Assembly (NCBI GenBank): GCA_030634585.1
Contig: DAOWAM010000001.1
Location: 1 to 29,731, forward strand
Origin: a bacterium
GTDB lineage: Bacteria > Patescibacteriota > Patescibacteriia > UBA2591 > DAOWAM01
DNA length: 29,731 nt
Direction: 5' to 3'
Made by a program: the position numbers and the translations under genes. The notes under the pieces are model-generated. The model did no database searches, was not told the origin of the DNA, and was given only the letters and a program-made list of their open reading frames with translations. Positions 1,643-3,937 of the stretch are shown in pieces (the stretch's first letter is position 1; each line of letters starts with the position of its first letter).

Positions 1643-3937
1643 ATGTTAATCAAAAAACTAAAATTACAAGGATTTAAATCATTTGCCCAACCAACTAATA
1701 TTGAATTTTCTACTAATTTAGAAAATAAATGTGGTATTACTGCTATTGTTGGACCAAATGGTTGTGGTAAGTCGAATGTAGTTGAAGCAATCCGTTGGGC
1801 ATTAGGTGAACAAAGTTTAAAAGCGCTTCGAGGTAAAAAATCGACTGACGTTATTTTTCATGGATCAGAAAAAAAGGCTCGATTAGGAATGGCTAAGATA
1901 TCTTTATATTTCGATAATCAAGATCAATCAATGCCAATTGATTATTCAGAAGTAATTATTAGTCGGCAAATTTTCCGCAATGGTGATAGTGAATATTCAA
2001 TTAATGGTAATAAAACTCGTCTAATTGATATATTGGATCTCTTGGCTAAAGCAAATTTTGGGCAAAGAAGTTACAGCATTATTAGTCAAGGACAAATTAT
2101 GACCATTTTACTCTCTTCGGCCATTAATCGAAAAATATTCTTTGAGGAAGCAACTGGAGTAAGAATGCATACAATAAAAAGAGAAGAAACTATTCGCAAG
2201 ATTACCCGAACTAAAGAAAATTTACAACGAGTAAACATCACTTTACAAGAACTAAAACCTCGAGTTAATTCTTTAACTCGGCAAGTTAACAAATTAGCCA
2301 AACAAGATAAAATTAAAGATACACTGTTGATTTTACAGAAACAATATTACAGCAAAATTTGGAACAAAATTAAAAAAGAATGTGAAATAACTAATGAAAA
2401 TTGGCAAAAGGCGCGCTTCAAACACCAGACATTGTCGCAACAAATTAAAGAAAATCAAGAAAAAATAAATCAATTAATCAATTTAAATGAGCAAACAAAA
2501 CCTTGGAAAAAATTAGAAGAAGATTATCAACAATTAATTACTCAGAAAAACGAATTATCCCAACAAGAATCATTTCTTTATGGTCAAATCGTTTCTATTC
2601 AGCAACAAAGTACTCTAGACAGTGAAGAACAAACAGAAATAAATATTCCCTCACAAAATATTCAACAAACTTTAATTGTTTTAAAAAATATTAAACAAGA
2701 ACAAGAAAAATTAATTAATTCTTTGTCGAATATAAAAGATCTTAATGAATTATCCCCTTTAATTAAACTGGCGGATAAAATAAAAAACGAAATTACTGAT
2801 TTGATTAATCCGAAACAAACACGGACTCAAGCACCAACACCACAAAAAAATAAGCAAGAAAATAAATTATTAAACGACTTGCTTAAACAACGACAATTAT
2901 TAAAGGAGCAAATTAAACAATTAAACGCGCAAATAGAACAAGTAAAAACAAAAATAAATCAATCTCAATTATCTGAAGACAAAGAAAGGCAAAAAACATT
3001 GGCTCAACAAACAAAATGGCAAGAACAACAAAACGATTTTAATCGAGCAATTCAACAAACTAATGAAATTAAAATAGATCTGACCCGAATCGAAACCAGA
3101 AAGCAAGTATTAGAAGAAGAAATCTATCAAGAATTAAGTTTAATGCCCGATCAATTACCCATATTAAAACAACCAATTAATCAAGAAGAAATTCTTGCTG
3201 AAATAGACAAATTAAAATATGCGCTACAAATGATTGGTAATATCGACCCAAGTATTGATGAAGAATATAATGAATGTTCCCAACGTTATCAATTTTTAAA
3301 TACTCAGTCAGTTGATTTAAAAAAAGCAAACTCTTCATTAAATCAGATTATAAAAAAACTAGATCAAAAAATAGAAAAACAATTTCGTCAAAATTTTTCT
3401 AAAATTAATCAGCGTTTTCAACATTATTTCACTATTCTTTTTGGAGGAGGAAAAGCAAAATTAATTTTTCATGAACAAGAAGTGAATCAATCAGATGGAC
3501 AAGAATTAGATGTTGATTCTTATTCTAAAACAAAAAGTGTAATGTATGGAATAGACATACTAGTTAATCCGCCGGGTAAGCGTTCAAAGAATATCGAAAC
3601 TCTTTCTGGTGGCGAAAAAACATTAACTGCCTTGGCGTTAATTTGTGCTATTATCAGCACTAACACGCCTCCTTTTGTTATTTTAGACGAGGTTGACGCC
3701 GCTTTAGACGAAAGTAATTCTAGTAAATTCGCTAACATTTTAGAATCATTATCTAATAAAACTCAATTTATTGTTATTACTCATAATCGTGGAACTATGC
3801 AAAAAGCCAACGCCCTTTACGGAATTACTATGGGTAACGACGGTATCTCTAAGTTATACTCGTTAAAATTAGAAAGCGAGTTTCGTCCTCTTTTGAAAGA
3901 GGACGAAGTGCAGTCCCCCGTGAGAGACAAGCATTAA
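1643..3937 (+). CDS. smc: Short SMC-family ATPase (chromosome segregation protein SMC-like, no recognisable hinge)
   Basis: GFKSFA; Walker [10 protein letters not shown] followed by the SMC-typical [26 protein letters not shown] signature; Walker [18 protein letters not shown]-loop; coiled coils between; follows rnc as in many bacteria. Confidence 0.88.

Follow-up and report, generated by a model that had tools for sequence, protein, structure and literature searches.

The window analysed here, the whole 29,731-nucleotide stretch of contig DAOWAM010000001.1 (assembly GCA_030634585.1), belongs to a genome of the Patescibacteria, or Candidate Phyla Radiation (CPR), and carries on its forward strand a gene for a bacterial Smc protein that lacks the hinge. 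This genome, recovered as a metagenome bin, comprises 92 contigs with a total of 606 kb, at a completeness of 88.9%. The open reading frame (ORF) of the gene, the halves of the encoded head and the strands of the arm are arranged as follows, arm and tip boundaries being those of a structure model described below:

1643-3937, + strand: smc, 764 amino acids (aa) plus stop, without an internal stop; 622.9 bits against TIGR02168, nearest solved relatives 5xg3 and 3zgx
1643-2161, + strand: N-terminal head half, aa 1-173, with Walker A at aa 37-44 (nt 1751-1774) and the Q-loop residue Q149
2162-2605, + strand: N-terminal arm strand, aa 174-321, with model helices 174-284 and 288-321 and a small break at 285-287
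2606-2866, + strand: tip module at the position of the hinge, aa 322-408, 87 residues in the AlphaFold (AF2) model
2867-3211, + strand: C-terminal arm strand, aa 409-523, with a helix at 409-498, a break at 499-513 and then helices leading into the C-terminal head
3212-3934, + strand: C-terminal head half, aa 524-764, with the signature at aa 654-658 (nt 3602-3616), Walker B and D-loop at aa 678-689 (nt 3674-3709) and H714

Pfam SMC_N matches residues 3-736 (E 3.9e-62), and the set of ATPase motifs is complete: Walker A (GPNGCGKS at 37), signature (LSGGE at 654), Walker B (FVILDE at 678), D-loop (DEVDAALD at 682) and H714. The original prediction, made from the letters alone, had described complete SMC-type N- and C-terminal head halves within one 764-aa ORF, and this description stands. 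The protein scores 622.9 bits against the NCBIfam equivalog model for bacterial Smc (TIGR02168), above the curated cut-off of 567.35; the match falls into two stretches that skip the centre of the profile, the first aligning residues 3-405 with positions 2-398 of 1181. The nearest solved relatives are head constructs of Bacillus subtilis Smc (5xg3 and 3zgx, E about 1e-102), and a Foldseek search with the whole AF2 model returns heads of Smc and cohesin that include coiled coil and joint (top match 5xei, E 1.1e-29). In a tree from which the hinge columns were left out, the protein lies inside the CPR Smc clade (support 99), sister to 13 canonical Smc. The gene at 1643-3937 codes for this organism's own Smc, the ATPase subunit in a Smc-ScpAB condensin; head, head-proximal coiled coil and joint have all been kept.

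Proteins of similar design are excluded as identities. The RecN model (TIGR00634) scores 42.6 bits, far under its cut-off of 407.85; the Rad50 models, with cut-offs of 700-1087, reach 30-54 bits and the SbcC model, with a cut-off of 478.5, reaches 26.7, and the CxxC hook is absent. Family scores and tree thus group the protein with Smc rather than with RecN or SbcC, as had been supposed at the outset. Could a Smc-derived ATPase nevertheless have been repurposed for repair or defence, in the style of RecN, Rad50/SbcC, Wadjet or Lamassu? The short hinge-less coiled coil does recall RecN and Rad50, and AAA_21, AAA_23 and SbcC_Walker_B give weak matches to the protein. We nonetheless consider such a role very improbable: the score lies above the Smc equivalog cut-off and far under those of RecN, Rad50 and SbcC, the protein is the sole Smc of its genome, at the rnc-smc locus and inside the Smc tree, and Smc co-occurs with ScpB across the phylum.

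The hinge is regarded as a hallmark of SMC proteins; in models of DNA loading and loop extrusion it serves to dimerise, to bind DNA and to open a gate. In the 764-aa protein, the hinge domain PF06470 gives zero Pfam matches even at E <= 1, and regular-expression searches find neither the hinge motif G.{6}G.{3}GG nor a C..C pattern of the zinc-hook type; residues 175-520 hold a single glycine. The same glycine-motif search is positive in hinge-bearing relatives, at position 481 in L007, 549 in L008 and 652 in Priestia L069 (L numbers denote loci of our collection). Nor does PF06470 match anywhere in the 606-kb, 88.9%-complete genome, in which the only long SMC_N protein is the Smc of the window, the two other SMC_N matches being SufC-like and MacB/LolD-like ABC ATPases. 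A local hinge hidden Markov model (HMM), built from six hinge-bearing relatives and run with all filters off, recovers 22 of 22 hinge-bearing sequences (9 CPR and 13 outgroup, six of them by construction) and none of 145 other sequences below E 0.64. The earlier proposal that the centre has neither a glycine-rich hinge nor a CxxC hook therefore holds at the level of motif, domain and hinge fold.

A hinge deleted by misassembly, leaving an artefact or a pseudogene, might be suspected because the sequence comes from a binned metagenome in 92 contigs, and read support across the centre had been named as a check. This explanation is barely credible. The frame is intact, and the gene is present in Logan contigs from four cold-seep metagenome runs of one study. 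Single contigs from two further samples, neither of them marked as a possible source, span the tip DNA (2606-2866) with 0 differences, X3 record 13 covering 2012-2891 and X4 record 21 covering 2142-2892; no joints or indels are listed in either, so that independent contigs bridge 2012-2892 unchanged. The cluster to which the protein belongs is recorded on 3 contigs, and the architecture is common to more than 100 homologues among those listed, at 37-50% identity.

What, then, occupies the place of the hinge? The AF2 model of the full protein (alignment A1) has a mean predicted local distance difference test score (pLDDT) of 79, and a second model of residues 270-460 alone, from a 14-sequence alignment (A3), has a pLDDT of 80. 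In profile-profile comparison (hhalign, A1 against A2), the N-terminal arm strand aligns to that of hinge-bearing relatives up to about residue 320 and the C-terminal strand from about 407. Between them, the predicted tip consists of a loop (322-337, with P336), a helix (338-362), a turn, a second helix (371-388) and a loop (389-408, with P390, P398 and P400). Over the two models the tip helices reach pLDDT values of about 72-89 and the loops fall below 50; the 270-460 model reproduces the layout of the full one, with 76-89 for the tip helices. The break at aa 499-513 is, in the model, the Smc joint. With about 150 residues per strand, the arms have roughly half the canonical length (344 in B. 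subtilis), in agreement with the short arms proposed initially. With each residue adding about 0.15 nm, the textbook rise, the residue counts give a head-to-tip reach of roughly 22-26 nm, compared with about 47-49 nm in B. subtilis.

In 13 relatives the tip keeps its layout of two helices joined by a turn, with a proline-containing break on either side, and many relatives have 'PLPL..II' ahead of the first tip helix and 'RPAPEP' behind the second. The tip is without a counterpart in the hinge-bearing profile, over whose hinge region hhalign spreads it thinly, with no real alignment. As the local hinge HMM is negative as well, we rejected the notion that the tip is a remnant of a hinge.

Is the missing hinge a peculiarity of one gene? 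We sampled 401 genomes from the phylum and scored two Smc candidates per genome, so that absences are soft. The counts include genome G154, which is flagged as unpublished; none of the conclusions depends on it by itself. TIGR02168 matches in 162 of them at E <= 1e-10, strongly in 154 and weakly in 8 (1.5e-16 to 7.4e-11). PF06470 matches in only 10, in 9 above its cut-off. These nine hinges are confined to two families of the window's class (f3, 6/6 genomes; f8, 3/3), and the tenth match is weak and does not share a contig with the Smc of its genome. No hinge match is found in 145 of the 154 genomes with a strong Smc match. The 120 best database homologues of the window protein are 707-902 aa long, and none has PF06470 in precomputed annotation; direct scans found it in none of 10 homologues of 868-900 aa at E <= 1, and in none of seven longer hinge-less Smc from other families (922-1070 aa) at E <= 10, two positive controls being matched. 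A Smc without a hinge is therefore the usual state in this phylum, where it comes in several discrete arm-length classes, and is no peculiarity of a single gene. The nearest named records of the hinge-less forms are Uhrbacteria, Harrisonbacteria, Kuenenbacteria, Buchananbacteria and Moranbacteria, those of the hinge-bearing forms Magasanikbacteria.

Six loci (L024-L027, L030 and L031, in genomes G090, G317, G037, G217, G395 and G168) encode Smc of 988-1070 aa, near the canonical length, without a detectable hinge; loss of the hinge is thus not bound to short arms. A candidate 'half hinge' in G158, where PF06470 matches only positions 4-51 of 116, was discarded: the locus (L115, G158:C13:1800-5300) holds a run of 200 N, which makes the partial match an artefact and not a half-deleted hinge. 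Separately, the metagenome-assembled genomes behind L034, L041, L064 and L071 are titled 'uncultured Gammaproteobacteria' or 'Bdellovibrionales', and their Smc fall within the CPR clade; the labels look wrong.

Across the families sampled, ScpB (159/401 genomes) tracks the pattern of Smc (162/401). Both are present throughout f23 (4/4), f24 (10/10) and f30 (13/13). With two Smc candidates scored per genome, neither a Smc match nor ScpB was found in f16 (0/5), f17 (0/11), f18 (0/5), f25 (0/11), f26 (0/4) or f31 (0/6), and f22 has Smc in 1 of 23 genomes and ScpB in 0 of 23. Given whole families with neither gene, Smc-ScpAB may be absent altogether from much of the phylum.

The length survey of CPR Smc that the original prediction had called for was run on the stretch between two HMM anchors, equivalent to residues 174-523 of the window protein, which itself measures 350 residues from anchor to anchor. 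Stop-to-stop frame lengths from the phylum survey overestimate the protein by up to about 140 residues, and the classes are not based on them. The 145 hinge-less sequences are a biased sample, consisting of the 120 best matches to the window protein and 25 chosen loci. The lengths fall out as follows:

Hinge-less (n = 145), 300-359 residues: 113 sequences
Hinge-less (n = 145), 450-499 residues: 26 sequences
Hinge-less (n = 145), 600-689 residues: 6 sequences
Hinge-less (n = 145), 360-449 or 500-599 residues: 0 sequences
Hinge-bearing CPR, 464-467 residues: 2 sequences
Hinge-bearing CPR, 603-607 residues: 7 sequences
Canonical outgroups, 595-606 residues: 3 sequences
Canonical outgroups, 803-815 residues: 9 sequences
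Canonical outgroups, 876 residues: 1 sequence

The hinge-less sequences cluster near 340, 475 and 650-685 residues, each cluster lying roughly 125-130 residues under a hinge-bearing class (464-467, 595-607 and 803-815). A hinge-less pair at 601 (L031) and 608 (L030) forms a fourth cluster, without a hinge-bearing partner class. Natural Smc arms have been reported to follow length modes of 163, 238 and 341 residues, and functional arm lengths in B. subtilis to be periodic, only certain lengths supporting activity (Buermann et al., 2017, PMC5344682, in the parts considered here). When the B. subtilis-type class is set to the 344-residue arm of that study, a calibration of our own, the hinge-bearing classes correspond to these three modes, and the window arm, at about 150-170 residues, comes near the 163 class. 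As described there, the survey behind the modes needed an alignable hinge, and hinge-less forms could thus not be included.

How the hinge came to be distributed in this way was approached with a maximum-likelihood tree of 48 Smc over 758 columns, from which a 70% fill rule had removed the hinge columns. CPR Smc form one clade (support 99). The nine hinge-bearing CPR Smc form a clade of their own (100), nested among hinge-less ones within a class-level clade (98) that includes the window protein and 12 other hinge-less Smc. A tree holding all 26 hinge-less rows together is not rejected by the approximately unbiased test (log-likelihood difference 20.2, p 0.131). A tree of the hinges alone places those of the CPR beside Bacilli-type hinges with weak support (80-81), and trees in which Bacillota or Bacilli are held together are not rejected either (p 0.357 and 0.318). 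Many independent losses of the hinge and a single loss followed by a regain are both compatible with these trees and tests.

The gene's surroundings, near and far, comprise the following features of the window:

1-435: nusB, upstream of rnc
435-1157, + strand: rnc (RNase III), the upstream neighbour of smc
26751-26766, no strand assigned: parS-like palindrome TGTTCCACGTGGAACA, with one mismatch to the parS consensus; shuffled sequences hold a mean of 0.08 matches

The resulting order nusB-rnc-smc seems to recur in a Harrisonbacteria locus (L095), where nusB-like and RNase III-like ORFs precede smc as judged by eye, without a family search; rnc-smc is presumably also the order in B. subtilis. 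An ORF with a ribosomal protein S16-like N terminus (by eye) follows smc in L033, L034, L041, L071 and L095. It stands behind hinge-bearing and hinge-less smc alike, which suggests that both kinds occupy the same chromosomal locus.

Between rnc and smc lies a 122-aa ORF (1189-1557, + strand) with a lysine-rich N terminus and a histidine-rich stretch that looks HNH-like by eye. It matches no Pfam or NCBIfam family, and ORF lists inspected by eye show no repeat of it upstream of smc in 8 related loci. These neighbours bear on the idea that the tips are linked or capped in trans by a separate protein, which would assume the role of the hinge. All that speaks for such a partner is that no tip interface was identified. 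We regard it as improbable, because no conserved accessory gene was seen beside smc in the related loci inspected and the 122-aa ORF has neither a family match nor a counterpart at those loci.

The partners of a canonical Smc are all encoded. The absence of scpA and scpB from the window, pointed out in the original prediction, is accounted for by contig C82, where scpA (237 aa) and scpB (189 aa; TIGR00281 above cut-off) are neighbours. The genome also has two ParB_N genes and ten perfect parS sites (TGTTTCACGTGAAACA), six on contig C46 and four on C48. The parS said to lie about 23 kb from smc corresponds to the one-mismatch palindrome at 26751-26766, about 22.8 kb downstream of the gene. ScpA, ScpB, ParB and parS thus all belong to the genome. 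The perfect sites form dense arrays, six within 1.2 kb on C46 (1834-3010, contig of 4.3 kb) and four within 0.8 kb on C48 (821-1628, contig of 2.8 kb), spaced 153-336 bp apart. About 540 bp from the palindrome in the window lies a free-standing 136-aa LAGLIDADG endonuclease ORF (25800-26210, - strand; PF00961, E 1.2e-8).

How might a Smc without a hinge work? We infer, with a probability of roughly 0.58, that it acts as a dimeric rod whose far ends are held by packing of tips or arms and which is loaded at parS. We envision that two hinge-less subunits would still form a rod-shaped dimer, that ScpA with ScpB would bridge the two heads, and that the far ends would be joined where the two tip hairpins pack together, where the co-aligned arms do so, or at both places. 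Such a complex would be loaded at ParB-parS and, like canonical Smc-ScpAB, would translocate along DNA or extrude it, its reach being smaller. The non-canonical dimerisation at the apex and the smaller ring of the original prediction may likewise hold. The discrete length classes would count in favour of this scenario, as a trace of selection on a rod of defined dimensions.

Several observations weigh against a dimeric rod. A contact between tips is seen in none of the present results, and the tip is poorly conserved, with an identity of only 9-21% to the window's tip in 13 relatives. The share of strongly hydrophobic columns is 0.28-0.32 in the tip and 0.24-0.29 in the arms; as the tip hardly exceeds the arms, there is no sequence signal for an extra interface. 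A structure search with the tip model gives 0 matches in the Protein Data Bank (PDB) at E <= 0.001, and hence no known dimerisation fold. To these must be added the biased composition of the length sample and the room that a genome 88.9% complete leaves for a second SMC-like gene. The matches listed for the tip model are generic long helical hairpins and coiled coils, among them a B. subtilis Smc fragment (5nnv, E 0.14), and chance matches to unrelated large proteins. A dimer prediction with two copies of residues 240-480 (alignment A1), made with no control runs, scored 0.20 and 0.24, the mark being 0.42, and speaks neither for nor against the rod.

Alternatively, the tips might not dimerise at all. 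Each Smc would then be a closed hairpin, linked to its partner only by ATP-dependent head engagement and by the neck-cap bridge of ScpA, and only the kleisin compartment could hold DNA. A tip that is short, poorly conserved, devoid of an additional hydrophobic signal and unlike any known dimerisation fold is what such a hairpin would lead one to expect, and head, neck, joint and ScpAB are all kept. Arm-length classes that are discrete and mirror those of hinge-bearing Smc would, however, be hard to explain if the far ends were free, and hinge-less, single-armed mutants of B. subtilis Smc are reportedly defective. We consider free tips rather unlikely and favour the dimeric rod.

The dimeric rod allows a more specific proposal, which we put forward tentatively. 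The helix-turn-helix tip could be a new, minimal SMC dimerisation module that replaced the hinge early in Patescibacteria. Most of the phylum would then run Smc-ScpAB hinge-free on arms that keep the canonical length classes, and the Magasanikbacteria-type hinge would have been either kept through many losses elsewhere or regained.

The gene of the window is a real Smc, ordinary for its phylum and unusual in its architecture. A large phylum manages hinge-free in most of the searched genomes that have a Smc, while ScpAB and ParB-parS are kept; the hinge fold is thus dispensable in nature. A Smc of 764 residues and roughly 25 nm offers a small system for structural and single-molecule work, and the hinge-less classes that run parallel to hinge-bearing ones make the periodicity of arm length testable on natural sequences.

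How does this protein compare with known systems? With canonical Smc of the B. subtilis type (TIGR02168; 5xg3, 3zgx and 5xei) it shares the ABC head with its full set of motifs, the head-proximal coiled coil and the joint, and at the level of the genome the ScpA and ScpB partners, ParB and parS, and an rnc-smc order which we take to be that of B. subtilis. Unlike canonical Smc, it has neither PF06470 nor the GX6GX3GG motif, its arms measure about 150 instead of 344 residues per strand, and an 87-residue helix-turn-helix tip stands where the hinge, about 180 residues of our local model, would be. The hinge-bearing Smc of its own class (f3 and f8; nearest named record Candidatus Magasanikbacteria UBA11710) lie in the same CPR clade and class-level clade and differ from it in carrying a full hinge (PF06470 E 6e-33) with the glycine motif. 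One of them, the 871-aa protein of L007, belongs to the same short arm class. Its hinge spans residues 327-508, and the N-terminal arm of the window protein ends at 321; in the light of the profile alignment, the window protein looks like L007 with the hinge exchanged for the 87-residue tip.

RecN, which dimerises through its coiled-coil apex, and Rad50/SbcC resemble the window protein in their design of head, coiled coil and head without an SMC hinge; they are set apart from it by family scores far under their cut-offs and, for the zinc hook, by the lack of CxxC. An abundant oceanic cluster of 'hinge-less SMC' has been assigned to Actinomycetes and termed a new kind of biology; it branches with actinobacterial seeds, and the argument was made that its members are variant SMC proteins, as opposed to Rad50/SbcC (Sussfeld et al., 2025, PMC12153180). 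Compared by description, the two match in architecture, with SMC heads on an antiparallel coiled coil and neither hinge nor CxxC, whereas the window protein sits in the CPR clade; the passages of that paper considered here contain no mention of hinge-less CPR Smc. Searches of the open literature turned up no study of Smc lacking the hinge in Patescibacteria or CPR; paper supplements may list such sequences.

Engineered proteins offer a further comparison. In the parts of the study considered here, the Rad50 zinc hook can substitute for the B. subtilis hinge with function kept (Buermann et al., 2017, PMC5344682). Two results from the Mini-Smc and Smc(Zn hook) constructs bear on the window protein: shortened arms work at particular lengths only, and an unrelated dimerisation module can take the place of the hinge. 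Unlike the window protein, these constructs were made in the laboratory and retain a defined means of dimerisation, in the hinge or in the zinc hook; compared with Smc(Zn hook), the replacement in the window protein is natural and does without metal-binding residues. Hinge swaps and shortened arms have been engineered in B. subtilis, and the hinge-less Smc of this phylum is their natural counterpart.

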